From contig JBAZKH010000001.1 of assembly GCA_041650935.1 (NCBI GenBank), forward strand, positions 487,936 through 551,935: a DNA stretch of 64,000 bases. The letters run 5' to 3'. Both the position numbers and the translations under genes were made by a program. Below are positions 5,995 through 48,791 of this stretch, piece after piece (within the stretch, counting starts at the first letter, position 1; each line of letters begins with the position of its first letter). The notes beneath the pieces are model-generated. The model did not search any database and had not been told where the DNA came from. It saw nothing but the letters and a program-made list of their open reading frames with translations. The stretch is from Candidatus Omnitrophota bacterium. GTDB lineage: Bacteria > Omnitrophota > Gorgyraeia > 2-01-FULL-45-10.

Positions 5995-7911
5995 ATGAGC
6001 TCAAACGCCGTTAAAAAGATATTAAGGATTGCCGTCCTGTGCATAATAGCAGTGTCGGCGCTTGCCGTATCGTATTTTCGTCTGCTCGATGATTTCGAAT
6101 CCGGAATCCTCGATCTCAGATTTCTCCTGCGCCCGGCCAAAGCCGCCCCGGCAGACAAAGTCGCGGTCATAGAGATAGGGGACGATAGCATAGCAAAACT
6201 CGGCCGCTTTCCGTTCGATCGGAATTACCACGCGATAGTCGCAACTGCCCTTTCGGAATTCGGCGCTAAGGCGATAGTTTTTGACGTGCTCTTCGGGAGT
6301 CCCCAGGAACACGACGCGGAGCTGGCAGAGGCCCTTAGGCAATCGGGCCGGGTATACCTTCCAACAGCTTTCGATATCGACAACGCGAATAAGTCGAATG
6401 TCATTACTGCCAAAGGTTACGCGAGCGAGTGTCTTCCCGATCTTGCCGCCAAGGCTAAGGGCACGGGTCATATAAACGTAGTGCCGGACCCCGACGGTAA
6501 ATTCAGGCGGGTCCCGTCGTATATAAAATATGATGGTAAGCTATACCCCAACCTCTCTTTCCTGGCCGCCTGCGATTATCTCGGCATTGACAGGAACGAC
6601 GTAAAGCTTTACCCCGGTAAATATATACGGTGCGCCGGCGGGCCGGTCATCCCGCTCGGCGAGAGATCCGAAATGATAATCAATTATTCCGGCAGGTGGG
6701 GTAAAGTATTCAGGCATTACTCATATGTAGATGTTATACAGTCGTATCTGGCGCCGGCAATAGGGCAGAAACCGATATTACAGCCCGATTATTTCAAAGG
6801 CAAAATCTGCATAATAGGCTTGAATACCACCGGAATGGACATCCATCCCAGTCCGTTCGAGCCGGTGTACCCCGGCGTAGGCATACACGCCGAAATACTT
6901 ACCTCGATAATAGACGGGGACTTCATAACGAGGATGTCGAGATGGTTTAACCTGATAGTCCTCATCTTATGTTGTGCCATTGTCTTATTTGTTACCTTTG
7001 CGACAAGGCCGGTCGCCGGGTTTCTGGCGCTTGCCGCATTGATATCAGTATTCACCGGGCTGTGCCTGGGCCTGTTCGATATCTACGGCATATGGCTCGA
7101 CGTAGTGTGCCCGATCCTGATAATGATATTGCTATACCTGTCGCTCACGCTCTGTAAGTATATATCCGAGTGGAAGAACAGGTTGAAGTCTGAATATGAG
7201 CTGGGTATGGCCAGGACGATACAGGAGAGCTTCCTGCCGAAGAATGTCCCGGAGGTCCGGGGGGCGGATATAAGAGCTGTAATGTTAACGGCGCGCCAGG
7301 TCGGCGGAGACCTGTATGAGTTCATTGAAATAGACAATGACAGGTTCGGCGTTATGATCGGCGACGTGTCCGGCAAAGGTGTTCCCGCGAGCCTGTTCAT
7401 GGCCATGGTAGTCGGCCAATTCAGATGTCTAAATGCCGTTAACCCCGATCCGCGCGAAACTATTTCGCGGCTGAACTCCAGGCTCGTCCGGGAATCCGCG
7501 TCGAACCTGTTCGTTACCATGCTCTACGCGATATTCGACTTTAAGAACAAGTCCGTCAGATTCGCTAACGGCGGACATCTCCCCATCCTATATATAGGTA
7601 AGGGCCAAAGCGCGGAATTTCTCGATGTGGACGAAGGGATGCCGCTCGGCCTTATGGATGGCGGATATTCGGAAAAGGCGGCGAGCTTTGGGGGTGGAGA
7701 TATCTTTATCTTTTATACGGACGGCGTTACTGAAGCGATGAATTCCCGCCGCGAGATGTATGGTAAGGAGCGGCTTGCCGCGATTGCCGGAAAGTATAAA
7801 GACCTTTCGGCGGAGGAGATCCTGGCAAATATCGAAAAGGATGTGCGGCGCTTCGAGCCGAGATCGAACCAGCACGATGATATAACCGCGATAGTAATCA
7901 AAATTGGCTAA
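5995..7911 (+). CDS. CHASE2 sensor domain-containing PP2C/SpoIIE-type serine phosphatase
   Basis: N-terminal TM, ~300-aa extracytoplasmic CHASE2-like region, TM cluster, then PP2C/SpoIIE motifs (..GGDLYEF..IGDVSGKGVPASL.., ..FYTDGVTEA..). Confidence 0.75.
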   Translation: MSSNAVKKILRIAVLCIIAVSALAVSYFRLLDDFESGILDLRFLLRPAKAAPADKVAVIEIGDDSIAKLGRFPFDRNYHAIVATALSEFGAKAIVFDVLFGSPQEHDAELAEALRQSGRVYLPTAFDIDNANKSNVITAKGYASECLPDLAAKAKGTGHINVVPDPDGKFRRVPSYIKYDGKLYPNLSFLAACDYLGIDRNDVKLYPGKYIRCAGGPVIPLGERSEMIINYSGRWGKVFRHYSYVDVIQSYLAPAIGQKPILQPDYFKGKICIIGLNTTGMDIHPSPFEPVYPGVGIHAEILTSIIDGDFITRMSRWFNLIVLILCCAIVLFVTFATRPVAGFLALAALISVFTGLCLGLFDIYGIWLDVVCPILIMILLYLSLTLCKYISEWKNRLKSEYELGMARTIQESFLPKNVPEVRGADIRAVMLTARQVGGDLYEFIEIDNDRFGVMIGDVSGKGVPASLFMAMVVGQFRCLNAVNPDPRETISRLNSRLVRESASNLFVTMLYAIFDFKNKSVRFANGGHLPILYIGKGQSAEFLDVDEGMPLGLMDGGYSEKAASFGGGDIFIFYTDGVTEAMNSRREMYGKERLAAIAGKYKDLSAEEILANIEKDVRRFEPRSNQHDDITAIVIKIG

Positions 7912-9318: not shown

Positions 9319-9412
9319 TGCTGCTAGGTACCGTTTAGTATGTAAGCATGGCTACCAACGCAATTTTCAAGTCGTAATAGATTAGCATAGAGAAGTTCCC
9401 ACGACGATATTG

Positions 9413-9452
9413 TAGCCGACATTTAAATGTCGGCTACGACGGAGAGCTTTTT
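9413..9452 (+). terminator. hairpin GTAGCCGACATTTAAATGTCGGCTAC followed by a T-tract. Terminator-like
   Basis: Perfect 10-bp stem with a TTTAAA loop, then ..GAGCTTTTTTGG. Confidence 0.5.
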
Positions 9453-10200: not shown

Positions 10201-13200
10201 ATGTTCAGGTCATCGTATTTTGTTAAGGCTGCGGCAATTGTTCTGCTTATATTGGGATCCCTGTCTTTCCCGGATTCGGTTTTTGCGGGTATTGCCGAAG
10301 GTAAGAATCTTCTTGCGGATGATATGGACATCGTCGGCGCGCACGCACAATTCCACGCGGCGCTTGAGGCTAACCCCGGCGGGCAATGCGAAAATTTCTG
10401 GCACGCGGTTACGGCGATCTTCTCAAACGGCGCGCTAAAGACAAAACTGCGAGACCTCAAGATATTCGATGGCAGCGACAGATTGGCGATATTTGACAGC
10501 GAAGGAGATTTGAATTACGTTGCCGACGCGGATGTCGACAATATTATAATCGACGATACCGGCCTTACCTATACCAGCCCTGCCAACTGGATAACGGTGC
10601 CAAGGACGGAAACGAACCATCCGTATAATGATAGCTTTATAGTAAATAGCGTTGGTTCCGGGACCGCTACATGGACTCCGAATGTTTTGACGCCGGGATA
10701 TTATAAGGTCCTGGCATGGATACCTTCAGACTCCGCGAATACCGGGGATGCGAAATATTCGGTGGGAGGTAATCCTGTCGTTTCAGTAAATCAAAAAGGA
10801 GGCGGGGGTGGATGGTGGGTCTCGCTGGGAGAATATGATCTTGCGGCCGGGTCCGTCAATATAACGCTGTCGGCTGATGGCTGCGCGGGACGCGTGATAG
10901 CCGATGCCGTAAAACTGGAATATATGGGCGCCATCAGGAACGACACAGAAGCCGGTTTTAGCGGTGCATGGATAGCGGAGACGGACAGTAATAAGGCGTT
11001 TAGACGTGATTATAAATGGCATGCGGCGGGTTCGGGCTCAACCGCTACATGGACATTTAATGGTGTCGATACGGCAAAGAAGTACCTGGTCTATGCAAGG
11101 TGGCCCCGCATAAGTGAAGGCGCGGCCCCTAAAGTCCAGTATGTCATGAGCACTGACGGCAGTCCGACTACCGTAACGGCAAGCCAGAGCGAAAATGCCA
11201 ATGGATGGTGCTGTCTCGGCATGTTCCAGTTTTCAGGCGCTATAGCCACAGTAACCCTTAACTCCAGCGCCGACGGAATAGTAGCCGCGGATGCCGTAAA
11301 GATCGCGCCCGCCAGGCCGTACCCGGATTTAACCCAGGCCCAGGACATGCTCAATAACAGCGCGACCGGCATAATGACCCAGATAGACGAAGCGCTCGCT
11401 AACCTTTCCAAGATAAATGATACAACAAAAGATTTTTCCGACTCCATAGTTTTGGGGGGACAAACGATTACGCTCGATTACGGTGACGCTATGGCTATTG
11501 AAGCGGCCCTCTATTTTTTAAAGGCCATGGCAAAGATAAATGCCGCATATGATATGAACAATATGAATATGCAGTCTCTGGTATTTAATCAAGGCTGTGT
11601 GCTTGACACGCCCCTATCTTTCCTTAATAGTTATATACAGCTCTTCACGCTCCGCGCCGGCGCGGGCGGTTTTCTTTCCGATGCGAAGACCGCGCTCTTG
11701 AACGCGATCGATTCTTACATGCTCGCATCCCCCTTTATACTGAACAGGGGTGAGGATGGCTTAAACCATATGGTTAGTTTTTACGAATCGTATCCCGACA
11801 GGGATGATTACCTTACAGAGGAAGCGTGGAACGGGGCCGTGGCGAAATGGCAGGAAGATAAAGATACGGCATTGGAATGCGAGCAGTATGTGCGTGAAAA
11901 GATGACAGACGTAAAGAATAACCTTACCGCCGCCAACCATCCTTATATCACGATCCCTGCCGAGATACCGGGCGCGGAGGGTGGCCCCGGCATAGAGATC
12001 AAGGTCGACCTGTATGAATTCTTCACGAATCCCAAGAATGTCCGGGACAATATAAATGAGCTTTTGGATAACGGCGTTGCGCCTAACATAGTCTTGGATG
12101 ACCTGCCCGACCCTACAGTGGGTGAGGTATTACCGACACTTGGACCGCGTGACTGGAACTTCCTCTTTGGTTACGGGCCGGTCTTTAAAGACGATCCTCA
12201 GGTTATCTGGGATGCGGACGCGCCTTCGGTTAAGCTTGAATGGGACGCTTCCAGCGACGAACACAAAGACCATATAGTGAAATACGAAATATACCGGTCG
12301 ACTTCAGCCAACATGGCGGGCGCATCTCCGGTAACTACGATCACGGACCCGTTGCTCACAAGCTATGTCGATACTTCTATTAGCGATTCCGAAGATAAAT
12401 ATTACTACCGTGTCCATACTTTTTACAATTTCGGCGGCAGCCACACGGCCGAGACCTATACCGAGGCAGGCAAGGCTATCCTCAGGATATATGTCGATGC
12501 GAATAGCGCGGTTACCGAAGAGGAAGGCACAAGGACCAAGCCTTATAAAGACCTGGGCTATGCGACTTCGGAAGGCGCCGGGAACGGCACAAAGGTCCGC
12601 GTTGCGGCAGGGACGTATCAGGAGAATGCCAGCTCGCTTAAGTTGTGGCGCGCGTCCAGCATTGTCCTCGAGGGCGGATATGAGGGGGTCAATTGGACGA
12701 GAGATATTGCCTCGAACGAGACGATCATCGATTCCCATGGATTGAATCCATCTAATAATCCTCTCGAGCTTTGGAATAAGGGTAATGTAACGATCGATGG
12801 CTTAACGGTAATTGGGCAGGTTACGGCTAATTCCTGGAGCTCGTCTATTTATGTTGGAAATTCTTCTTCTGTTATTATCAGGAATTGCAAAATACGCGGC
12901 GCAAATACCGGCATACAGGTGTATTGTTCGACCGGAGTGCTTATCGAAAACTGCTTTATAGAAGGAAGCGGGTCGATCACGAACGGCGGCCCGGGTATAG
13001 ACGTTTTTGGCTGGGATCAGGTCTCTTCTGTAATCGTCAAGGGATGCCATGTCACTAATTGGTCAAATGGAGGCATCGCGTTTAATTCCGGTAACAATTG
13101 GCAGGGTGCTCTCACGGTTTTTAATAGTGTTATTGACAAAAATAACAAAACAGGTATCAACTGCTGGGGTAATAGTAGTACGGGTGATGTCAGTATACAG

Positions 13201-14313
13201 AACAACACTATTGTAGGGAATAGAGAAACCGGAGGCATATGTTTCAACTCTCTCAGGAGTATAGTTATTAAAAACAACGTAATTGCCCACAATAACGGTG
13301 GTATAAATTTGACAAGTATTGGTATTTATGGGTGTAACACAACCGGCACATTACAGGTTGTTGCCAATAATGATTCTTATGGTCACTTTAATGGAGATTT
13401 CATTGGCTGTGCAGCTTCTGGGTATAACGGCAACATAAATGCCGACCCGCTCTTTATCGACGAGGCGAATGGGAATTACCGCCTCGGACAGATAGCTTCC
13501 GGACAGGCAGGTAATTCGCCGTGTGTCGACACGGGCAGTGATACGTCTGCAAGCCTCGGCCTGTCAGGCATGACCACGCGCAGCGACGGTGTGGTCGATA
13601 GCGGTATTGTGGATATGGGCTATCATTACGCTTCGACCATGGCGCCAATATATAAGGAAGAGTTCATAGTTGACTTCGGTGATGTATACGGCATCTGGGT
13701 ACGGTACAACGACTCAACCTGGACCAAGCTCCATGACTTAAGTCCGAAATCAATGGTAACCGGCGACATCGACGGTAACGGTAAAGACGATATCATTATC
13801 GACTTCGGAACCGAATACGGCATCTGGATAAAGTACAATGATTCTGGCTGGCAGCAGCTTCACAGCTTGAGCTCGGAGTCAATGGTAACCGGCGACATCG
13901 ACGGTAACGGTAAAGACGATATCATTATCGACTTCGGAACCGAATACGGCATCTGGGTACGGTACAACGACTCAACCTGGACCAAGCTCCATGACTTAAG
14001 TCCGAAATCAATGGTAACCGGCGACATCGACGGTAACGGTAAAGACGATATCATTATCGACTTCGGAACCGAATACGGCATCTGGATAAAGTACAATGAT
14101 TCTGGCTGGCAGCAGCTTCACAGCTTGAGCTCGGAGTCAATGGTAACCGGCGACATCGACGGTAACGGTAAAGACGATATCATTATCGACTTCGGAACCG
14201 AATACGGCATCTGGGTACGGTACAACGACTCAACCTGGACCAAGCTCCATGACTTAAGTCCGAAATCAATGGTAACCGGCGAGCTGGATAACGATAGCGG
14301 CGGAATTGTATAA
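10201..14313 (+). CDS. giant secreted multidomain protein. Order: signal peptide, two golvesin-C-like carbohydrate-binding-type domains, helical region, FN3-like domain, right-handed parallel beta-helix, then six FG-GAP/VCBS-like repeats
   Basis: Signal peptide. Two ..GxYxV..W.P.....A.Y.V........Q..GGG.WV.LG...L..G....L.....G.V.ADAVK.. domains. FN3-like ..VKLEWDASSD..YEIYRS... PbH1-type NxxIxG repeats (..NCKIRGANTGIQV..NCFIEGSG..). C-terminal DxDGNGKDDIIIDFG..YGIW..YN repeats. Confidence 0.7.
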   Translation: MFRSSYFVKAAAIVLLILGSLSFPDSVFAGIAEGKNLLADDMDIVGAHAQFHAALEANPGGQCENFWHAVTAIFSNGALKTKLRDLKIFDGSDRLAIFDSEGDLNYVADADVDNIIIDDTGLTYTSPANWITVPRTETNHPYNDSFIVNSVGSGTATWTPNVLTPGYYKVLAWIPSDSANTGDAKYSVGGNPVVSVNQKGGGGGWWVSLGEYDLAAGSVNITLSADGCAGRVIADAVKLEYMGAIRNDTEAGFSGAWIAETDSNKAFRRDYKWHAAGSGSTATWTFNGVDTAKKYLVYARWPRISEGAAPKVQYVMSTDGSPTTVTASQSENANGWCCLGMFQFSGAIATVTLNSSADGIVAADAVKIAPARPYPDLTQAQDMLNNSATGIMTQIDEALANLSKINDTTKDFSDSIVLGGQTITLDYGDAMAIEAALYFLKAMAKINAAYDMNNMNMQSLVFNQGCVLDTPLSFLNSYIQLFTLRAGAGGFLSDAKTALLNAIDSYMLASPFILNRGEDGLNHMVSFYESYPDRDDYLTEEAWNGAVAKWQEDKDTALECEQYVREKMTDVKNNLTAANHPYITIPAEIPGAEGGPGIEIKVDLYEFFTNPKNVRDNINELLDNGVAPNIVLDDLPDPTVGEVLPTLGPRDWNFLFGYGPVFKDDPQVIWDADAPSVKLEWDASSDEHKDHIVKYEIYRSTSANMAGASPVTTITDPLLTSYVDTSISDSEDKYYYRVHTFYNFGGSHTAETYTEAGKAILRIYVDANSAVTEEEGTRTKPYKDLGYATSEGAGNGTKVRVAAGTYQENASSLKLWRASSIVLEGGYEGVNWTRDIASNETIIDSHGLNPSNNPLELWNKGNVTIDGLTVIGQVTANSWSSSIYVGNSSSVIIRNCKIRGANTGIQVYCSTGVLIENCFIEGSGSITNGGPGIDVFGWDQVSSVIVKGCHVTNWSNGGIAFNSGNNWQGALTVFNSVIDKNNKTGINCWGNSSTGDVSIQNNTIVGNRETGGICFNSLRSIVIKNNVIAHNNGGINLTSIGIYGCNTTGTLQVVANNDSYGHFNGDFIGCAASGYNGNINADPLFIDEANGNYRLGQIASGQAGNSPCVDTGSDTSASLGLSGMTTRSDGVVDSGIVDMGYHYASTMAPIYKEEFIVDFGDVYGIWVRYNDSTWTKLHDLSPKSMVTGDIDGNGKDDIIIDFGTEYGIWIKYNDSGWQQLHSLSSESMVTGDIDGNGKDDIIIDFGTEYGIWVRYNDSTWTKLHDLSPKSMVTGDIDGNGKDDIIIDFGTEYGIWIKYNDSGWQQLHSLSSESMVTGDIDGNGKDDIIIDFGTEYGIWVRYNDSTWTKLHDLSPKSMVTGELDNDSGGIV
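13691..14280 (+). repeat. perfect tandem repeat, 258-bp period (two 43-aa propeller blades per unit), ~2.3 copies, inside CDS 10201..14313
   Basis: Copies beginning at 13691, 13949 and 14207 read identically base for base. Confidence 0.85.
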
Positions 14314-14333
14314 ACGCAATTTAATGCAGTGGG

Positions 14334-14359
14334 GCAGGTTTAAACCTGCCCCACTTCTG
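14334..14359 (+). repeat. palindromic element GTGGGGCAGG-TTTAAA-CCTGCCCCAC. Member of the dispersed TTTAAA-loop hairpin family. Terminator-like
   Basis: Perfect 10-bp stem. Lies 21 nt after the stop of 10201..14313. Confidence 0.6.
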
Positions 14360-14409
14360 TCATTGCGAGGGCACGAAGTGTCCGAAGCGATCTAAAATCG
14401 GGAGGGCGC

Positions 14410-26506: not shown

Positions 26507-27697
26507 ATGAAGATACTCCAAATCCATAATTTCTACCAAACATCCGGCGGCGAGGACAGCGTAGTGCGCGCCGAGAAGGAACTTCTTGCATCCCGCGGTC
26601 ATGCCATCATCACGTATTACCGGCATAATGATGAGATAAGAAGGTACGGCCTATTTAAAAAGATAGGTTTTATTAAAACGGTTTTCTATTCCGGCCGGAC
26701 CGTAAAAGAGTTGACCGCTATCATAGAAAAAGAAAGGCCCGACGTAGCGCACGTACATAATCTCTTTCCGCTTATATCGCCTTCGGCATATTACTGCCTT
26801 AAGGCGCACGGGATACCCGTTGTGCAAACTGTGCACAATTACCGTTTCTTATGCCCGAACGGCCTGTTTTACAGAAAAGGCGTTATATGCGAGAAGTGTA
26901 AAAGCGGCAATACAGCACATTGTTTTTTTTATACATGTTATCGGAATAGCGTATTTTTATCCGGGCTATACGCGCTGACGTTCTGGTTTCACAGGAAACT
27001 CGGAACCTTTCTCCGGTTTATAGATATCTTCATCGCCCTGAGTAATTTTGCTAAGGATAAACTTATCGAGGGAGGCCTCCCTGGGAGCAAAATCGAGGTT
27101 GAAGGTAACTTTGTAGCCGTCGATAAACACGCGCCGGTGTATGACAAAGATTCTTACGCGCTTTTTTTAGGGCGTATTTCCCCGGAGAAAGGCATAAGAA
27201 CGCTTTTGGATGCCTATAAGATATTGGACACGCTCTTCCTGAAGATTGCCGGGGAGGGGCCTTTGCTGGAGCGTGTAAAAGAATATATTAAGAGCAATAA
27301 TATCGCTAATGTAGACGCGTTAGGTTTTGTTTCCGGATCGGAAAAAGCCGCGTTGCTAGGCAAGGCGGCAGTTAGCATAATTCCCTCAGAGTGGTACGAG
27401 AATTTCCCAATGGCTGTTCTCGAGAGCCTTGCCGCAGGAACGCCGGTAATAGCTTCAAGGATCGGCGGCCTGCCGGAATTGATCGAAGAAGGCAAAAACG
27501 GCCTTCTCTTTGAGCCCGGCAATACCGGTGACCTTGCCGCGAAGATCAGATATTTTTACTCGAACCGCGAAATAGCGCTTAATATGAGCCGTTATGCTCT
27601 CGAAAGTTTTGAAAAGAGATATTCCGCCGGGAAGCATTACGAGGGGCTTATACAGATATATGATAAGGCAATTAAGTTAGGCAGGGGGCGGGTGTGA
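26507..27697 (+). CDS. family 4 glycosyltransferase with a Cys-rich insertion
   Basis: GT4 E..ENFP..VLESLAAGTPVIASRIGG motif. The ORF-track start at 26429 is probably a 5' over-extension, since MKILQIHNFY at 26507 is typical. Insert ..CPNGLFYRKGVICEKCKSGNTAHC.. Confidence 0.8.
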   Translation: MKILQIHNFYQTSGGEDSVVRAEKELLASRGHAIITYYRHNDEIRRYGLFKKIGFIKTVFYSGRTVKELTAIIEKERPDVAHVHNLFPLISPSAYYCLKAHGIPVVQTVHNYRFLCPNGLFYRKGVICEKCKSGNTAHCFFYTCYRNSVFLSGLYALTFWFHRKLGTFLRFIDIFIALSNFAKDKLIEGGLPGSKIEVEGNFVAVDKHAPVYDKDSYALFLGRISPEKGIRTLLDAYKILDTLFLKIAGEGPLLERVKEYIKSNNIANVDALGFVSGSEKAALLGKAAVSIIPSEWYENFPMAVLESLAAGTPVIASRIGGLPELIEEGKNGLLFEPGNTGDLAAKIRYFYSNREIALNMSRYALESFEKRYSAGKHYEGLIQIYDKAIKLGRGRV

Positions 27698-28455
27698 ACG
27701 GGAAACTGAGTATATTAGGCATCGGTGTGAGTCTAACCGATTATGCGCGCACGATCGATGCTGTTATATCGGCAGCTAAGGAGCGCAGACCCCTGCGCGT
27801 TACGGCATTAGCGGTGCACGGCCTCATGGAGGGATTTTACGATAAAGATCTGGCCCATAATCTAAACAGCTTCGACATTGTTACTCCCGACGGCCAGCCC
27901 GTCAAATGGGCGCTGAATCTTTTAGGGGCAAAGGAGATAAAAGATAGGGTGTGCGGGCCGGTTCTTATGTTTAAGATTTGTGAGAGGGCCGCCCCGGAGA
28001 AGATTCCGGTGTTTTTTTATGGCAGCAAAAAAGAAATTTTAGAAAGATTAGAAGCGAATCTATTAAAACTATGTCCCGGTCTTATTGTGGCTGGGGTTAA
28101 AGCGGATAGGTTCAGGGATACGACACCGGATGAAGACAGGGAAGATATTGATACGATTAATGGGAGCGGTGCGCTAATAGTATTCGTGGGAAAAGGATGT
28201 CCGCGGCAGGAGAAGTGGATTGCCGCTCACGGTTTGCGGATACGCGGCGCGACAATAGCGGTTGGCGCGGCTTTTGATTTCCACGCAGGTATGCTCAAAA
28301 GGCCTTCGAAATTTTTCCAGGACCTCGGACTTGAGTGGGCATTTCGGTTAGCACAGGAACCCAGGCGGTTATGGAAGAGATATATCCTGCTAAATCCCGC
28401 GTTTGTTTTTAACCTCTGTTTACAGCTTTTGAAAGTCAAAAAATATAATACCTGA
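27694..28455 (+). CDS. WecB/TagA/CpsF-family glycosyltransferase (GT26)
   Basis: ~250 aa with the family-typical N-terminal ..ILGIGVS..TDY.. and central ..GPDLM.. regions. Confidence 0.7.
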   Translation: MNGKLSILGIGVSLTDYARTIDAVISAAKERRPLRVTALAVHGLMEGFYDKDLAHNLNSFDIVTPDGQPVKWALNLLGAKEIKDRVCGPVLMFKICERAAPEKIPVFFYGSKKEILERLEANLLKLCPGLIVAGVKADRFRDTTPDEDREDIDTINGSGALIVFVGKGCPRQEKWIAAHGLRIRGATIAVGAAFDFHAGMLKRPSKFFQDLGLEWAFRLAQEPRRLWKRYILLNPAFVFNLCLQLLKVKKYNT

Positions 28456-28574
28456 AGCAAGAAGCGTGCCCAAATAAAATTAATCGCTGAAAAATACAAC
28501 TGGGATGATATTGTCAAGCGTACTTATTTTTATATGCCAGTAACAGTTTAGCGTAAAGAAGTATCTCAACGAGA

Positions 28575-28602
28575 ACGTAGGGGAGGTTTAAACCTCCCCT
28601 AC
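28575..28602 (+). repeat. palindromic element ACGTAGGGGAGG-TTTAAA-CCTCCCCTAC. Identical 28-mer to 30721..30748
   Basis: Read directly. Lies 120 nt after the stop of 27694..28455. Confidence 0.85.
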
Positions 28603-28712
28603 GTCGGGAGAATTTCTCCGCGCTAATCTATTGCATATGCCATCCCTTAACGAAATAGGTGAAATATGATATATTTCTTATTGATGTTAAATATAGCACT
28701 TTGGAGAAATAT

Positions 28713-29090
28713 ATGAAATATATAGAATTCAGAAAGATTATGGGAGGGTTCCCGGTATTCTCGCTTTCCGACATACGGCAGGCGGATCCCACGTTTCAAC
28801 GCAGGCGGCTTAATGAATGGCGGGAGAAGGGGTATCTTAAGAAAGTAATTAAGGGGCATTACATTTTTTCCGATCTGTCGCTTGATGAGAATCGCTTGTT
28901 TGAGATCGCAAACCGGATTTACGCGCCCTCATATGTTTACTTTGAAATGGCGCTTGCTTATTACGGATTGATCCCGGAAAGTGTTTATGGAATTACCTCG
29001 GCATCAACGCGTAAGTTCAAGGCGATGCCGGTAAAATTATGCTTTTCCCGGAATTCGTGCGCGGTATGTAGCACAAAAATTTGCTTTTGA
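28713..29090 (+). CDS. AbiEi-like antitoxin domain protein (type IV TA transcriptional-regulator family), possibly truncated
   Basis: wHTH-like ..FSLSDIRQ......RRRLNEWREKGYLKKVIKGHYIF.. then ..SYVYFEMALAYYGLIPE.. resembling AbiEi N- and C-terminal regions. GGAGA SD before the ATG at 28713. Confidence 0.45.
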   Translation: MKYIEFRKIMGGFPVFSLSDIRQADPTFQRRRLNEWREKGYLKKVIKGHYIFSDLSLDENRLFEIANRIYAPSYVYFEMALAYYGLIPESVYGITSASTRKFKAMPVKLCFSRNSCAVCSTKICF

Positions 29091-29106
29091 GGTAATTGTA
29101 TGATAT

Positions 29107-29131
29107 AATCGCTTCATATATTGAAGCGATT
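29107..29131 (+). promoter_or_regulatory. perfect inverted repeat AATCGCTTCA-TATAT-TGAAGCGATT between two TGnTATAAT boxes. Promoter/operator of the Fic gene
   Basis: 10-bp arms read directly. Flanked by TGATATAAT and TGTATAAT. Confidence 0.5.
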
Positions 29132-29163
29132 AATTTGTATAATCGCTTCAGGAGGATCAGGCT

Positions 29164-30294
29164 AATGAGATATATCTGGGAGCGCAAAAACTGGTTTGAC
29201 TTTAAATACGATGAAGCTCTTTTGCTCAAACCCTTAAGCAGGCTGCGGATCCTGCAAGGTAAGCTGTTAGGGCGCGTCGCGTCCCTTAATATCAAGCTTG
29301 AAACCGAGGCGCAGGGAGCTATCCTGGTCGAGGAAGCCGTTCGGACCGCGGAGATCGAAGGACAAAGGCTTAACCGGGATGCGGTTCGTTCATCGGTGGC
29401 TGGCAGGCTCGGCATGCCGCGCGGCATCGGGGCGCATATAGGAACATTGACGGCCTTGTGGATATATTGCTGGATGCGGTGCGTTTTCATGATAAACCTT
29501 TGACATTGGAACGGCTTAACGGCTGGCATGCGGCGCTGTTTCCTTCAGGCTATTCCGGGTTAAGAAAGATCAGGACCGGGAAAATGCGCGGCGATGAGCC
29601 CATGCAGATAGTGTCCGGGCCTATCGTAAAAGAAAAGGTGCATTTTGAAGCGTTGCCGAAAGACCGCCTCTATGAAGAGATGCGGTCTTTTTTGAAATGG
29701 TGGAATTCATCACCCGGCCGCATGGATGGGATCTTACGCGCGGCGACAGCCCATTTGCGTTTTGTGACAATGCACCCCTACGAGGATGGTAACGGCCGGT
29801 TGGCCCGCGCAATAACCGATATGGCCTTGGCCCAGGATGAGAAATTAAAAGTCAGGTTCTACAGCATCTCTTCCGAGATAATGCGTTCCAGGAACGAGTA
29901 TTACAAAATTCTGGAAGACGTACAAAGGCACAGAGTCGACGTGACCGGGTGGTATCTGTGGTTTATTAAATGCGTTACCGCGTCTATTGAACATTCCAGG
30001 GATATTATTGCCGATGTATTGATGCGTATCGACTTCTGGAATCAGCATGCCGAGACCCAGTTAAATGAGCGCCAGAAGAAAGTCTTGAACCGCATACTGG
30101 AGGCGGGGGCAGGGAATTTTACGGGTGGTTTAACGACGCGTAAATATGTGAGTATCGCAAAGGTAAGCCGCGCCACCGCGTTCCGTGAAATAGCGGATAT
30201 GCTTGATAAGAAGGTATTGCGGCAACTCTCCGGCAAGGGCCGCAGTGTCCATTATGATCTGGTAAAGCCGCGTTCAGGCGATGGAGGTGTATGA
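29164..30294 (+). pseudogene. Fic/Doc-family protein (HPFxDGNGR motif) with C-terminal wHTH. The ORF is split by a +1 frameshift near 29425-29440
   Basis: Fic N-terminal ..EAVRTAEIEGQRL.. lies in one frame (29164..29503). ..HPYEDGNGRLARA.. and the C-terminal wHTH lie in the next frame (29458..30294). AGGAGG SD before the ATG at 29164. Confidence 0.6.
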
Positions 30295-31459
30295 AAAAGC
30301 TTCACAGAACATTATCGGACGACTTTTGGACGAGAAGAAGATGAGCGCCCTCAGGCGGGTCTTTATTAATGTGATATTGAGCGTAGCCTTTGCCGCAGTA
30401 TCTTTTATTATACTCACGCCGCTGCTGGCGGAGGTCCAATTCTATTCCGCAGAGAAACTAATAACCAAATACCTATGGAAGGATGCCGAAGATAGGCTCA
30501 TCCTGGCCATAAAGACAGACCCTCTCAACTCTAAATATCCCGCGAGACTCGGAGAATTCTTATTTACTCAAAGCGCTTATAAAGATAATCCTCTTCCGTT
30601 GCTCAAAAAAGCCCAGGGGTATTATGAGCGCGCGGCCCGGCTGAATCCCAGGTGTGCCGAATATTTTACGAGGTTGGGACGGATATGTGTCAGCTTGTTT
30701 ATTGGTACTCAGGATTCCGGACGTAGGGGAGGTTTAAACCTCCCCTACAGTGATGCGGAGAGCGGGAGGGGGTATATCGACAACGCGTTTGAGAATTTCA
30801 AAAAAGCGCTGGCGGACGATCCGAATGGATTCAATGCTGCCTATGGGACGGGATACTCAGGTTTAGCCGCCTGGAAATATCTTAATGAAGACGAGCGGGC
30901 ATTCGTGATAGACAGATTAAAATATAGCCTGGAACAGAAGCCGTGGTACTCCGTATATATATATCCGCAGGTTTTGCGTATGACTGAGAGCCCGGAATTA
31001 TTAGGGATGATAATTCCGGAGATCGAAACGAAACGATGGGTTGACTCCAAAATTATCGATAAGCTTAAAAATGGTATGCGGGAAACGCCCGCCGCCATAA
31101 TTCCAAGATCGGGCTGGCAGGGTACGGTGCCGGGAGGCGGCAGCGTTTATGAGAACGGTAATATGTGTTGGTCCGGTACAATATACGGCGCTATGTTATT
31201 TCCGGCGGGCGACGCGTTGATCAAGGTGGAGGCGCGGGGAAGCCCGTCCGACGGCGTCTATCCCTATATACTCGTATTTCTGGACGGTAAAATAATAGGC
31301 AGCGTCTACGTCGATAGCGGTGACGTTAAAATATATTCTTTCGCCGCCAAGACGGATGGAGGCGTAAAAGTTTTGAGCATTACTTTTACCAATGACGGCG
31401 GTAATAAAAAAGAAGACAGGAACCTGTATATCGGTAACGCGCGGGTTGAACAAAAATGA
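30281..31459 (+). CDS. membrane-anchored TPR-like protein with a C-terminal beta-sandwich (CBM-like) domain. An in-frame palindromic element lies inside
   Basis: N-terminal TM. TPR-like helical pairs. C-terminal ..YILVFLDGKIIGSVYVD...VKVLSITFTNDGG... The true start is possibly 30341. Confidence 0.45.
   Translation: MEVYEKASQNIIGRLLDEKKMSALRRVFINVILSVAFAAVSFIILTPLLAEVQFYSAEKLITKYLWKDAEDRLILAIKTDPLNSKYPARLGEFLFTQSAYKDNPLPLLKKAQGYYERAARLNPRCAEYFTRLGRICVSLFIGTQDSGRRGGLNLPYSDAESGRGYIDNAFENFKKALADDPNGFNAAYGTGYSGLAAWKYLNEDERAFVIDRLKYSLEQKPWYSVYIYPQVLRMTESPELLGMIIPEIETKRWVDSKIIDKLKNGMRETPAAIIPRSGWQGTVPGGGSVYENGNMCWSGTIYGAMLFPAGDALIKVEARGSPSDGVYPYILVFLDGKIIGSVYVDSGDVKIYSFAAKTDGGVKVLSITFTNDGGNKKEDRNLYIGNARVEQK
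30721..30748 (+). repeat. palindromic element ACGTAGGGGAGG-TTTAAA-CCTCCCCTAC inside CDS 30281..31459, in frame (encodes ..RRGGLNLPY..)
   Basis: Identical to 28575..28602. The ORF stays open through it. Confidence 0.85.
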
Positions 31460-32655
31460 CAGAAAAAATATATAAACGGATACTCTGGCTCGGTATGGCT
31501 TTTCTCATAGTATTTTCTCCCCTGTGGAAAGGCGGGGCGAGGACGTGGCCGCTTACTATTATTATGCTTGTCGCTTATGCTCTCATTTTTACATGGCTCT
31601 GGAGGGCAAACAACGCCGAGCATTATAAATTCAAGAGTACGTTTATCGGCATACCCATTTTTCTATTTGCGGCGCTTGCTATAATATCATGCTTCTTTTC
31701 GATCTATAAGTACGACAGTCTATATGGAATGATCAAGCTATTCTGCTATATAGGTATATATTATCTCGTCGTCAACGAATTTGACAGGGAAACGATAAAA
31801 CGTATCCTTTATATTGTTATTGGTATGGGCGCCCTGTTGTCGATATACGGCCTTATGCAGTATCTTAATTTGCTTAATCATTCCTGGTGGGATCCCAAAG
31901 ATCTTATAGCGGCAACATTCGTTAACCACAACCATTTCTCCGGATACCTGGAGCTTGTGATACCGGTAACCGTAATTTTAGTTATGAAGAAACCCCCTTC
32001 GACGGCACGCCAATTATTTGCTTTTTCAGCCTTGGTAGTAATGATAATGGTTTTTATCCTGGCGCAGTCGCGCGGCGCGTGGGTAAGCCTGACCATATCC
32101 TTTTTGGCGCTGGCCTGCATACTTGCAAAGAAGAAGGAGGGGGGTGTAAAGAAGATAGTTATCCTTGCGTTGGTGGTGATAGCAATAGTCTCGCTGGTCT
32201 ATTTTGGCAGAGATGTGATATCTGAGCGCATAGCCGGGTCTGTCTCGGCTGAACCGGCAGGCGGTTCCTTCGCGACGCGGTTAAAGATATGGCAGGGCGC
32301 TCTTGACATGATAAGGCATAGCCCTATTGCAGGCACAGGCATCGGGACCTTCGCCTGGGGATTTCCACGATATAGGCCCGAAGGTTTGAATGGCCTGGCA
32401 AATTTCGCTCATAATGATTATCTAGAAACAGCTTGTGACATGGGGATGCCCGCTCTCCTGGTCATGCTATGGCTGATAACAGCCGTTATAAAGACCGGAA
32501 TAAGAGAAGAAAATTTTAATTCCTACCGTCTCGGATGCGCTATCGGAGTATTGAGCTTATCGATACACGCTCTATCTGATTTTAATTTCCATATCCCGGC
32601 TAATATGTTATTATTTACGGTATATCTGGCGATAATAATGAAAGCGAGGGAGTGA
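31456..32655 (+). CDS. O-antigen ligase (WaaL/Wzy_C) family membrane protein
   Basis: Polytopic. ..LAQSRGAWVSL.. and ..FAHNDYLETACDMG.. motifs typical of the O-antigen ligase family. Confidence 0.65.
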   Translation: MTEKIYKRILWLGMAFLIVFSPLWKGGARTWPLTIIMLVAYALIFTWLWRANNAEHYKFKSTFIGIPIFLFAALAIISCFFSIYKYDSLYGMIKLFCYIGIYYLVVNEFDRETIKRILYIVIGMGALLSIYGLMQYLNLLNHSWWDPKDLIAATFVNHNHFSGYLELVIPVTVILVMKKPPSTARQLFAFSALVVMIMVFILAQSRGAWVSLTISFLALACILAKKKEGGVKKIVILALVVIAIVSLVYFGRDVISERIAGSVSAEPAGGSFATRLKIWQGALDMIRHSPIAGTGIGTFAWGFPRYRPEGLNGLANFAHNDYLETACDMGMPALLVMLWLITAVIKTGIREENFNSYRLGCAIGVLSLSIHALSDFNFHIPANMLLFTVYLAIIMKARE

Positions 32656-47308: not shown

Positions 47309-47332
47309 TAGGGCAGGTTTCAACCTGCCCTA
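47309..47332. repeat. palindrome-family copy TAGGGCAGGTT-TC-AACCTGCCCTA overlapping the EpsI stop codon
   Basis: Perfect 11-bp stem. A partial GGGCAGGTTTT copy sits at 47286. Confidence 0.6.
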
Positions 47333-47965
47333 TATTGTCATGGAGTCGACTATCTTTACAGTTTCGCTGAGAAAAGATTTCAGCATCGCAAGCGCCTGCT
47401 TCTCGTCGCTTCTTATCGGTATCGCGACGCGGATCGTAGCGCCCGGAACGCGCTTGCCGAATATCTGATGGATGGCGAGATATGCCTGTTGCAGATAAAA
47501 ATTGCTGGTATACAATTTTCCGGCCTTGTATGCATAGAGCACTAGCTCCTTAAAATCGCCCTTTTCAGCCAGCATCTTGTTTGCCGAAAATTTATACTTT
47601 CCGGATTCGATATTCTCATTCTGTTTGTCCACTATAGCAAAGCCGCCTCCTGCTATACAGACTTCGGGCGGATGGAATACAGATCTATTAGTCTCGGAAT
47701 ATATAATAAATAAACTTAATTTATCGTTTGACTGGTTGACGTATTCGCGAGCGATCAAGTTCCTTGTCTCAAGGATTTGATATTCTTTTTCCGTTATCTC
47801 TAAGTCCGTTCCTTTCCACTTCCCTATCGTGTGCGGAAAACTATGTATGTCGGTCGTGTCGCGCATAGTCTTCTCCTGCGAAAATAACCGAAGGGAAAAG
47901 AAACTCGCCGCTAATAAAAGGACGACCAGCAACATGTAGCCTAAAATGTTTTTATCTGACTTCAT
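47330..47965 (-). CDS. EpsI-family exosortase-associated periplasmic protein
   Basis: N-terminal TM. ..IGKWKG.D.......L...N...R.Y.......L.IIYS.......HPPEVCIAGGGF.. matching the EpsI signature. The start is chosen at MKSDKN, so the ORF-track start at 48082 is likely an over-extension. Confidence 0.7.
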   Translation of the reverse strand: MKSDKNILGYMLLVVLLLAASFFSLRLFSQEKTMRDTTDIHSFPHTIGKWKGTDLEITEKEYQILETRNLIAREYVNQSNDKLSLFIIYSETNRSVFHPPEVCIAGGGFAIVDKQNENIESGKYKFSANKMLAEKGDFKELVLYAYKAGKLYTSNFYLQQAYLAIHQIFGKRVPGATIRVAIPIRSDEKQALAMLKSFLSETVKIVDSMTI

Positions 47966-48791
47966 TTTTTGTTTCCAATACTCTTGATACGGCGAATAGC
48001 CCCACAAAAGCGAATGCAAAGACCAGGAAACCGGTAAAGTCGTGGAATAACCCCATCGCGACTTTTCCCCCATATAGGTCATTTACCACAGCGACCATGA
48101 CGATCCTCGTGACATTTGCCGCGAGCGCTATGGGAACGGATGATAGGAATAGTATCGATTTCCTAACGTAGGAAATTTTCATCGAATACGCGAAGAGCAG
48201 GCCGAGGGTCAAGAGCGATATGAGCGAACGCAGTCCACTGCACGGGGCGGCGACCTCGATATGCGAATTCGGCATCCTTATGATACTGCCGTCTTGTATC
48301 GACGGAAATCCGATCCTGTTTAATATAAAAGTAGAAGCCTGCGCCGCTATCAATTTTAATTTTACCGTCAGGTTCCCTATCAATACGAGCGGTAATGGCA
48401 CCATGGCAAGAAGAAAAAATACCGGAAATGTCAGGCTGCGTACCATCTCTTTCCCGAAGAAAAAGAGAATAAGCCCGTATAAAACCAGTATGAACGAGAA
48501 ACCGGATACGAAATAGACTTTAAGCGCGGCGGATACGATATGGATCAGGAGCCCGAGAGCCACGATCCACAGCCCTGCGAGTGTCCCGGATATCGTTATC
48601 TTTTTCAGCGCCTCCCTTCTCTGCCAGACAATGAATAAGGAGATGATGGGGATAAGGAACCCATGTCCATAGTATGATTCGGCCGCCATCCACCTGTCGA
48701 CCATCCATCGCAGGGTCGGAAGGTACGCGATAAATAAAAGTGCGGCGCATGACGCGAATTTCAAAATGGCGTTTCGTTTAGAATTCATCAT
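47952..48791 (-). CDS. exosortase (EpsH/Xrt family)
   Basis: 8 TM helices. Motifs ..YGHGFLIP.., ..VAAPCSGLRSL.. and ..ANVTRIV.. (catalytic Cys/Arg/Asn triad regions). Confidence 0.9.
   Translation of the reverse strand: MMNSKRNAILKFASCAALLFIAYLPTLRWMVDRWMAAESYYGHGFLIPIISLFIVWQRREALKKITISGTLAGLWIVALGLLIHIVSAALKVYFVSGFSFILVLYGLILFFFGKEMVRSLTFPVFFLLAMVPLPLVLIGNLTVKLKLIAAQASTFILNRIGFPSIQDGSIIRMPNSHIEVAAPCSGLRSLISLLTLGLLFAYSMKISYVRKSILFLSSVPIALAANVTRIVMVAVVNDLYGGKVAMGLFHDFTGFLVFAFAFVGLFAVSRVLETKNEVR

Follow-up and report, generated by a model that had tools for sequence, protein, structure and literature searches.

Decayed toxin-antitoxin and defence genes in a variable slot of an Omnitrophota polysaccharide locus, and the REP-like palindromes beside them

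Introduction

A polysaccharide locus in the genome of a Candidatus Omnitrophota bacterium contains a 2.1-kb segment that carries an abiEi-like gene and a frameshifted Fic gene and lies between two identical palindromes, and the question it raises is whether these palindromes are the ends of a mobile element that brought the two genes in. The segment is part of a 64,000-nucleotide stretch (assembly GCA_041650935.1, contig JBAZKH010000001.1, positions 487,936 to 551,935; "the window" below). The 28-mer ACGTAGGGGAGGTTTAAACCTCCCCTAC is present exactly twice in the window, at 28575-28602 and 30721-30748, and never in shuffled sequences. To that extent the original prediction, which was made from the letters alone, was right about the two identical 28-nt palindromes; it went on to propose a decaying mobile toxin-antitoxin (TA) or defence cassette that they bound and that had entered the locus through them. 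Our analysis retains the decay and the insertion into a polysaccharide locus, and abandons the single mobile, palindrome-bounded unit. The best explanation overall, to which we give a probability of roughly 80%, would be a variable slot with decayed cargo, next to palindromes that are independent copies of a repetitive extragenic palindromic (REP) sequence and neither bounded nor delivered an island. The source-genome data are those of the window, and the census of REPs and of REP-associated tyrosine transposases (RAYTs) was taken from other Omnitrophota genomes; compared loci and proteins are cited by L and P numbers.

Results and Discussion

The slot between wecG and TPR-CBM60

Genes for polysaccharide assembly flank the segment on both sides and on the same strand, as had been claimed for this locus. 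Between 17.9 and 28.5 kb they encode a Wzx-type flippase, a methyltransferase, an oxidoreductase, GT2 and GT4 glycosyltransferases, an acetyltransferase, a Wzy-like protein and WecG, and between 30.3 and 34.1 kb a TPR-CBM60-like protein, a Wzy_C protein and a polyprenyl glycosylphosphotransferase (PGT). The two genes that border the interval are:

27694-28455, plus strand: wecG/tagA-family glycosyltransferase gene (Pfam Glyco_tran_WecG, E 6e-53; 74% amino acid identity to L004)
30341-31459, plus strand: gene for a TPR-CBM60-like membrane-anchored protein (Pfam CBM60 and TPR), the first gene past the slot

The wecG gene is the last conserved gene upstream of the slot; the window resembles L004 up to the wecG stop codon (28455) and not beyond. 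On the other side the open reading frame (ORF) is open from 30281, and the ATG at 30341 is the likely start of the TPR-CBM60 gene; this start, at about 30340, is the real right edge of the island. The protein has homologues (n=59), and in every fetched locus that is long enough its gene is followed by Wzy_C and then by a sugar phosphotransferase.

We compared the slot among fetched loci that encode TPR-CBM60 orthologues, anchoring the comparison on TPR-CBM60, Wzy and PGT. In L135 the slot is empty, the last glycosyltransferase gene overlapping the TPR-CBM60 start. L134 has an ORF6N gene and an MNT/HEPN pair at this position, while L004 and L133 have an AAA_14-DUF4143 gene, which in L004 matches the PADLOC candidate system PDC-S01. 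L132 carries a complete AbiEi/AbiEii pair that would be a separate acquisition, since it is only 37% identical to the fragment in the window. In L002 and L003, the closest relatives (about 81% nucleotide identity in the flanks), the slot is occupied by Fic and then by a papain-like Peptidase_C1 gene of 247 codons that overlaps Fic by 4 nt. The G+C content of the window is 0.37-0.42 over 28400-29200, 0.54-0.55 over Fic and 0.45-0.50 in the flanks. Since the contents of the slot differ from locus to locus, homology to L004 ends at the wecG stop codon and the G+C content shifts, these comparisons mark the interval as a variable accessory slot of a Wzx/Wzy-type polysaccharide locus, where TA and defence genes have landed repeatedly. 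It is like the defence islands and hot spots of surface-polysaccharide loci in having different defence or TA cargo in each genome at one fixed intergenic position, but unlike them in that no integrase, tRNA or att-type repeats were identified at this slot; its contents may be exchanged by homologous recombination through the conserved flanks.

Position of the palindromes relative to the slot

The two palindromes and the insertion that contains the right-hand one are as follows.

28575-28604, no strand: left REP copy, a 30-nt perfect palindrome, ACGTAGGGGAGGTTTAAACCTCCCCTACGT, with a 26-nt core (28577-28602) of the form GTAG...CTAC
30723-30748, no strand: 26-nt core of the right REP copy (28-nt direct repeat 30721-30748), which encodes RGGLNLPY
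30704-30751, plus strand: 48-nt in-frame insertion of 16 amino acids, GTQDSGRRGGLNLPYS, absent from 10 of 11 aligned orthologues

The left copy lies in a non-conserved spacer, 120 nt past wecG and about 50 nt before the promoter of the abiEi gene described below; an intergenic place of this kind is usual for a REP. The right copy occupies codons 148-156 of the ORF 30281-31459, and the 2.1 kb between the palindromes, which had been taken for the island, also hold the first 127-147 or so codons of the conserved TPR-CBM60 gene. Because the right copy thus sits about 380 nt past the real island edge, in a gene that is co-linear with island-less orthologues, and because L002 has its cassette without a REP, the palindromes are not the borders of the island; the sequences do not support the view that they delimit it or delivered it. 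An empty site with a single palindrome, which that view anticipates among relatives, did not turn up: L135 joins the glycosyltransferase directly to TPR-CBM60, with no palindrome. Nor was any palindrome found in the orthologous and cassette-donor loci L002-L005 and L123-L133, so the REPs do not travel with abiE or Fic.

The alternative, that the 2.1-kb segment is one mobile cassette with the palindromes as its ends, integrated through the repeat element, can call on the exactness of the two copies, on an inverted match between them that extends inward to 33 nt at 97%, on the proximity of the left copy to the left edge of the island and on the general knowledge that REPs are insertion targets for mobile elements (mentioned in PMC3733652). 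We nevertheless regard it as very improbable. The N-terminal part of the syntenic TPR-CBM60 gene, where the right copy lies, is co-linear with that of orthologues lacking the island, and an orthologue only 59% identical, in L001, carries the REP at the same codon, which also speaks against entry by way of the repeat. L002 has Fic and the peptidase in the same slot and no REP in its TPR-CBM60 gene, the cassette content consists of two unrelated modules with separate histories, and the palindrome is multicopy in unrelated contexts. For a transposon with terminal inverted repeats (TIRs), moreover, the right repeat is not at the end of the insert, and the empty arrangement in L135 is without a palindrome. 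We also rejected the 7-nt inward extension of the repeat as evidence of a TIR: it is too short, has one mismatch and has a tail that is absent from 127 other copies, and it is a weak hint of local copying. It is possible that a REP served as the insertion target at the left junction.

Small defence or TA genes in one orientation, split by palindromes, superficially resemble the cassettes of chromosomal integrons, with the palindromes as attC-type sites. The attC sites of integrons are imperfect palindromes of 57-141 nt with R''-L''/L'-R' cores. The hairpins of the window are perfect, 26-30 nt long and without that structure or length, no palindrome of this type lies between abiEi and Fic while one sits inside a conserved gene, and no integrase was seen among the neighbouring genes scanned. 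We rejected this reading on structure and context, and give it next to no credence.

The abiEi remnant

The left part of the slot contains two features:

28647-28712, plus strand: abiEi promoter and leader (promoter-like site TTAACG-17-TATATT, preceded by TG), kept in intact abiE operons
28713-29090, plus strand: truncated abiEi gene (type IV antitoxin and winged helix-turn-helix (wHTH) regulator), a 125-aa ORF matching PADLOC AbiEi

The ORF covers positions 1-104 of 200 of the PADLOC AbiEi profile (E 7e-32), and its match to NCBIfam TAA_AbiEi is weak (22.9 bits). It belongs to a family of 205-aa proteins that is very abundant in Omnitrophota (1161 matches), to which protein and DNA alignments show clear homology through residue 101 or so (about position 29015) only; from 29016 to 29065 the similarity to the family is weak and includes a 9-nt gap. 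At the other end, DNA alignment with L123 and L125 shows that the window is conserved from about 28655 through the abiEi ATG. The full-length relatives are followed by an AbiEii gene, with stop and start codons overlapping (L123-L127 and L132 carry AbiEii). Downstream of the window's abiEi no AbiEii ORF was found, and the next gene is Fic.

AbiE (AbiEi/AbiEii) is a type IV toxin-antitoxin and abortive-infection system (Dy et al. 2014, PMC3985639). The window has the homologous N-terminal wHTH half of AbiEi and the promoter region of operons whose full-length members are bicistronic, but neither the C-terminal antitoxicity domain of the two-domain antitoxin nor the toxin gene; because both are missing, the window does not qualify as having an AbiE system, and its abiEi reads as a remnant and not as a functional one. 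The apparent truncation of the gene noted at the outset is thereby confirmed. The intact abiEi/abiEii operons of L123-L127 share 68-89% identity with the window fragment; those of L123 and L124, from Hainich groundwater Omnitrophota, lie within a polysaccharide locus among methyltransferase, radical-SAM and glycosyltransferase genes, and those of L125-L127 adjoin a ParE/RHH pair and an ORF6N gene.

The Fic gene and its frameshift

The Fic gene is in two reading frames:

29165-29437, plus strand: Fic 5' segment, DUF4172 (Pfam, E 2e-26) with the inhibitory-helix motif TAEIEG
29437-29438, plus strand: one-base deletion that breaks Fic, seen in the alignment with the intact gene of L002
29438-30294, plus strand: Fic 3' segment, with the Fic core (Pfam Fic, E 2e-12; HPYEDGNGRLAR) and a C-terminal winged helix

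The DUF4172 match spans 29165-29503 and the Fic and wHTH part 29458-30294; a DIP2311-like_C match on the C-terminus falls below its cutoff (22.3 bits versus 27). At the lesion the window reads GCGCAT-ATAGG where the intact relative has GCGCACGATAGG (L002 reads CACGATAGG). The original prediction correctly placed a break near 29425-29440 in a Fic gene with the catalytic motif HPYEDGNGRLAR; its "+1" does not hold, since a single-base deletion puts the 3' part in the -1 (equivalently +2) frame. Insertion of one G yields a 376-aa Fic that is 95% identical to P0180, and the frame is unbroken in L002, in L128 and in more than 100 relatives that are all in a single frame.

The protein aligns with PDB 8CIL over residues 2-366 (E 3e-117) and weakly with S. 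oneidensis SoFic (E 6e-8), and the intact relative P0180 matches PADLOC SoFic (E 3e-43, positions 36-347 of 361). The catalytic motif HxFx(D/E)GNGRxxR is present as HPYEDGNGRLAR, with Y replacing F at position 3, and DUF4172, the inhibitory (S/T)xxxE(G/N) motif and the C-terminal wHTH are all present in the window's Fic, whose reading frame is interrupted. By its sequence the window's gene would be a Fic of SoFic-type architecture inactivated by a one-base deletion. It is like the SoFic AMPylases (PADLOC SoFic; PMC12249575; PDB 3EQX, 8CIL) in its DUF4172-Fic-wHTH order, its inhibitory TxxxEG, its catalytic motif and its occurrence as a single gene in variable, defence-rich contexts, and unlike them in being broken and in having Y for F in HPYEDGNGRLAR. 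The Sofic of E. coli was reported to be an abortive-infection AMPylase with a small downstream antitoxin, AS1 (PMC12249575); in contrast, the downstream partner of our gene's closest relative is a papain-like peptidase. An anti-phage role of the family in this setting is suggested by analogy, through the profile match of the intact relative to PADLOC SoFic.

Might the gene be intact and functional, the deletion being an assembly or consensus error in a MAG or a minority variant? The window does derive from a metagenome-assembled genome, the remainder of Fic is well kept (the 95% identity to P0180 cited above), and its promoter and operator are intact. We consider this unlikely, however. The deletion is not in a homopolymer (the bases on either side are CAT and ATAGG), and the adjoining modules are independently degraded, with abiEi truncated and about 690 nt of the peptidase gene gone, which fits a decaying region. 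A slippery heptamer is absent and the relatives are all in a single frame, which likewise led us to reject programmed frameshifting as an explanation of the two frames.

The peptidase remnant and the history of the Fic block

Alignment to L002 identifies one further feature between Fic and the TPR-CBM60 gene:

30291-30344, plus strand: 17-codon remnant (MKKLHRTLSDDFWTRRR and a stop codon) of a papain-like peptidase C1 gene

In L002 this gene is intact, with its 247 codons and 4-nt overlap with Fic. Window positions 30270-30307 align to L002 1026-1063 and positions 30308-30400 to L002 1754-1846, so that about 690 nt (L002 1064-1753 or so) have been deleted and the remnant consists of the first and last codons of the gene. 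Neighbouring Fic and Peptidase_C1 genes are found in L002 (1-1790), L003 (1-525) and L128 (7001-8343), and the peptidase has no PADLOC match; from their sequences it is possible that the two form a Fic-protease module.

The L002 lineage is represented by a second assembly, L128, whose Fic gene is identical. Homology between L128 and the window starts at about 29069, just 5' of the Fic promoter; before that point the L128 sequence is unrelated and the upstream gene is a different one. At four-fold degenerate sites the identity between the window and L002 is 140/159 (88%) in Fic, as against 64/107 (60%) in TPR-CBM60, 82/136 (60%) in Wzy and 120/173 (69%) in the PGT gene, and the peptidase remnant is about as similar as the flanks are. 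Because of this difference (88% versus 60-69%), the promoter and Fic (about 1.23 kb, 29069-30298) have an ancestor in common with the L002 lineage that is younger than that of their surroundings, through transfer or recombination. No repeats or recombinase were found at the ends of the block. Relatives of this Fic that are 84-87% identical occur in unrelated contexts, one between a SNF2/ResIII helicase and a trypsin-like protease and another beside Maf and a different AbiE pair.

AbiEi and Fic are not one cassette: homology to abiEi fades over about 29016-29065 and the shared Fic block starts at about 29069, which marks them as two unrelated modules. We also considered them as a co-evolving pair and rejected this, as the Fic relatives are without this AbiEi and the AbiEi relatives pair with AbiEii.

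We propose that the slot holds the debris of at least two independent acquisitions. One would be a type IV TA operon, AbiE, now reduced to its promoter and the half of abiEi that codes for the N-terminal wHTH; another would be a SoFic-type Fic AMPylase, a single gene that has a promoter and an operator of its own. The arrival of Fic probably displaced the rest of abiE, as is suggested by the way Fic abuts the abiEi stump at about 29066-29069. The peptidase gene, translationally coupled behind Fic, would since have been almost wholly deleted and Fic inactivated by the one-base deletion, and the Fic block would have been shared with a related lineage, by transfer or recombination, later than the surrounding locus. 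Decay is visible in the truncated abiEi, the lost abiEii, the frameshifted Fic, the peptidase gene reduced to 17 codons and the variability of the slot in relatives; three independent lesions within 1.9 kb point to genuine decay and not to one error of assembly.

The palindromes as members of a REP family

The 20-mer core of the palindromes was found in at least 117 stretches, nearly all of them from Omnitrophota MAGs (some labelled Planctomycetia), in a search of one genome per species among GTDB representatives; at least 33 assemblies are represented among 80 stretches listed. The core is nearly always framed by GTA...TAC, giving the 26-mer GTAGGGGAGGTTTAAACCTCCCCTAC, which is present at 127 of the 135 exact-core sites in the genome-scan loci. 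Elsewhere the copies number up to five within 8 kb, as in L033, and dozens in a single MAG, JAUYBI01. Sibling hairpins of the form GTAG-N6-TTTAAA-N6-CTAC with other complementary stems (32 of 160) occur in these loci and also in the window, the alternative stems in REP loci including GGTGGG (18 times), GTGACG (three times) and others. Besides its two exact copies the 64-kb window has three variant hairpins:

9412-9437, no strand: sibling hairpin GTAG-CCGACA-TTTAAA-TGTCGG-CTAC, of the same architecture with a different stem
14328-14355, no strand: variant REP-like hairpin AGTGGGGCAGGTTTAAACCTGCCCCACT, 15 nt past the stop codon of the gene at 10201-14313
47309-47332, no strand: variant REP-like hairpin TAGGGCAGGTTTCAACCTGCCCTA, at the 3' end of the minus-strand gene 47330-48082

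The stem of the hairpin at 14328 has a compensatory change relative to the GGGGAGG type. We searched for RAYT genes by tblastn with an E. coli YafM sequence, and the candidates in L082 (1406-1894) and L025 (6301-6789) were confirmed by NCBIfam and Pfam: both genes encode 163 aa, match NCBIfam NF047646 REP_Tyr_transpos with 115 and 117 bits (cutoff 80) as well as Pfam Y1_Tnp, and have hairpins of the family immediately on both sides, the layout of a REPtron. Since they are multicopy across genomes, have sibling hairpins, lie at the 3' ends of genes and flank RAYT genes, the sequences identify the palindromes as REPs of a GTAG-headed family found across Omnitrophota. A text search of the literature found no earlier description of such REPs in this phylum.

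Di Nocera et al. 2013 (PMC3733652) described GTAG-tagged REPs that are associated with RAYTs, usually lie downstream of ORFs and occasionally occur as in-frame copies within genes. The Omnitrophota elements are like those of the GTAG REP/RAYT, or TnpA(REP), systems (Nunvar 2010; Di Nocera 2013, PMC3733652) in being short (26-30 nt), G+C-rich, GTAG-headed hairpins that are multicopy across genomes, mostly intergenic and just past ORFs, with flanked RAYT genes in L082 and L025 and occasional in-frame copies. They are unlike them in the following respects: the palindrome of the window is perfectly two-fold symmetric, so that GTAG is paired with CTAC and is not an unpaired 5' tag; the hairpin keeps its TTTAAA centre while the stems covary; and most copies add complementary outer base pairs of variable sequence. 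Such pairs beyond GTAG...CTAC number at least one in 104 of 127 copies, at least three in 66 of 127 and up to 14, and some REPs are the centre of longer recurrent palindromes, for example TGTAACAAACCTTGTTGACTTTCAACAG-REP-CTGTTGAAAGTCAACAAGGTTTGTTACA; this outer pairing suggests that REPs nest in larger hairpins or create them.

Two further motifs accompany the hairpins. A DnaA-box-like motif (TTATCCACA / TGTGGATAA) is within 40 nt of a REP at 20 of 127 sites and stands immediately next to the hairpins at either side of the RAYT genes (L082 1300-1940, L025 6240-6840); about one third of its occurrences in 816 kb adjoin a REP. The motif TGTCATTGCGA(G/A)G...CGAAGCGATC stands beside REP-like hairpins in the window (14356-14395 and 47333-47342) and in several loci such as L027, L049 and L119, is found within 60 nt at 6 of 127 REP sites and may be part of a composite repeat.

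The left hairpin has a folding energy of -28.1 kcal/mol (z -6.5). It could be asked whether the pair is retained for a function, either as mRNA-stabilising or terminating hairpins that insulate the operon from foreign promoters or as a recombination pair for inversion or exchange. In favour of this are the great stability of the hairpins overall (-25 to -28 kcal/mol, z -4.9 to -6.5), the identity of the REP core at 26/26 positions between the window and L001 where the flanks are 65-73% identical, and the general view that REPs are RNA elements downstream of ORFs (PMC3733652). However, neither copy has a U-tract behind it or was called in the terminator scan, a RAYT-imposed constraint or independent insertion accounts just as well for a core that is identical across genomes, and L002, L003 and other orthologous loci function without either copy; we find a retained function of this kind rather improbable. 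Rfam, searched over 27000-32000 with E values up to 1, gave no match; the palindromes and the Fic leader are thus not members of a curated RNA family.

The REP copy inside the TPR-CBM60 gene

The palindrome has stops in two frames and encodes RGGLNLPY in the third, on either strand; because it has this one stop-free frame, in-frame REP insertions are tolerable. An AlphaFold (AF2) model built on the orthologue alignment has a mean predicted local distance difference test (pLDDT) score of 83.8. Its only long low-confidence stretch, with pLDDT below 50, is formed by residues 147-160, a loop between the helices 126-145 and 160-179. The insertion is thus predicted to lie in a surface loop, where a tolerated insertion would be expected.

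P0004, the orthologue encoded by L001, has an insertion at the same site (L001 481-506), and the 150-nt flanks of the REP core are 65% and 73% identical between the two loci. P0002 and P0003 are closer to the window's protein than P0004, yet have no insertion. The shared site would reflect one of three histories: two insertions at a preferred site, an old insertion that was kept identical and lost in the lineages between, or gene conversion. A target-site duplication at the intragenic REP (QDSGR / AESGR) was considered and rejected, as only 7 of 15 nt match.

RGGLNLPY is found in the middle of otherwise intact ORFs in other loci too (L075, L064, L063, L117, L105, L048/L057/L114 and L103), the host ORFs reading as LpxB-, ProC-, RfbB-, GT2-, GT4- and polysaccharide deacetylase-like by eye from their translations. 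In the RfbB-like ORFs the REP is at the same site in three genomes, with an identical core and diverged flanks.

The two-fold symmetry, the TTTAAA apex, the covarying stems, the outer pairs and the identical 26/26 core in orthologues only 59% identical raise the thought that these elements are not passive repeats: the family might spread unlike classical REPs and REPINs, for instance by insertion into the apex of hairpins already present or by fold-back synthesis, or the intragenic copies might be selected as functional DNA or RNA sites. We think this a long shot.

Rickettsia palindromic elements (RPEs) are roughly 100-150 nt long. The window's intragenic copy is like them in being an in-frame palindromic repeat that encodes a short peptide in a predicted surface loop and leaves its host ORF intact, and unlike them in being shorter (a 26-nt core, or 8 aa, with a net insertion of 16 aa), unrelated in sequence and in another phylum. 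RPE-1 has been described as comprising longer palindromic insertions (PMC3733652).

The Fic leader

The region upstream of Fic was analysed by alignment of four Fic upstream regions and by fold and terminator-like scans.

29069-29164, plus strand: Fic promoter and leader

It has a -35 box TTGCTT at 29081-86, an extended -10 box TGATATAAT at 29101-09 and a Shine-Dalgarno sequence GGAGG at 29151-55. Between them an 11-mer recurs three times, as TAATCGCTTCA at 29106-16, as its complement TGAAGCGATTA at 29122-32 and again as TAATCGCTTCA at 29140-50, the first copy overlapping the extended -10 box and the third abutting the Shine-Dalgarno sequence. In the four loci (the window, L128 at 6908-6990, L129 and L131) copies 2 and 3 do not vary, the 7-nt spacer between them does, and copy 1 is conserved in the window and L128 only. 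An operator palindrome had been proposed at 29107-29131; such a palindrome exists (29106-29132), but the most conserved pairing is another, the inverted repeat 29122-29150. The arrangement fits a candidate operator through which the C-terminal wHTH of the protein would regulate its own gene, or a hairpin of the 5' untranslated region at the ribosome binding site. Just past wecG, positions 28477-28496 are a 20-nt inverted match (85%) to 29117-29136 and contain TTAATCGCTGA, which resembles the 11-mer of the Fic operator; the match may be left over from a previous Fic leader or be due to chance.

Points that weigh against a variable slot with independent REPs

Several observations sit less comfortably with the explanation we prefer. 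The two copies are 100% identical and 2.1 kb from each other, and the other 62 kb of the window hold variants only; a random scatter of REPs does not explain this. The inward extension of their inverted match (7 nt with one mismatch, GTCGGGA / TCCGGAC) could reflect a shared sub-family tail or local copying. The REP census and the RAYT association come from Omnitrophota genomes other than this one, and tblastn with YafM found no RAYT in the 64-kb window. The Fic frameshift could be an assembly error. Finally, no close relative that covers the wecG side was found, and a metagenome scan with WecG, aimed at an empty site in some near relative, had a best match of only 54% identity and did not inform on the left junction; we infer both that junction and the order of events in which Fic displaced abiE.

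Conclusions

The importance of these findings is modest, and all the parts belong to known kinds. For annotators and pipelines, identical REP copies should not be taken for the ends of a mobile element. GTAG-REP/RAYT systems and REP-decorated proteins, here marked by RGGLNLPY, would extend to Omnitrophota as new members of those kinds, and the surface-polysaccharide loci of this phylum would have a fixed hot spot for defence and TA genes whose cargo turns over and decays, a feature that helps in the annotation of uncultured genomes.

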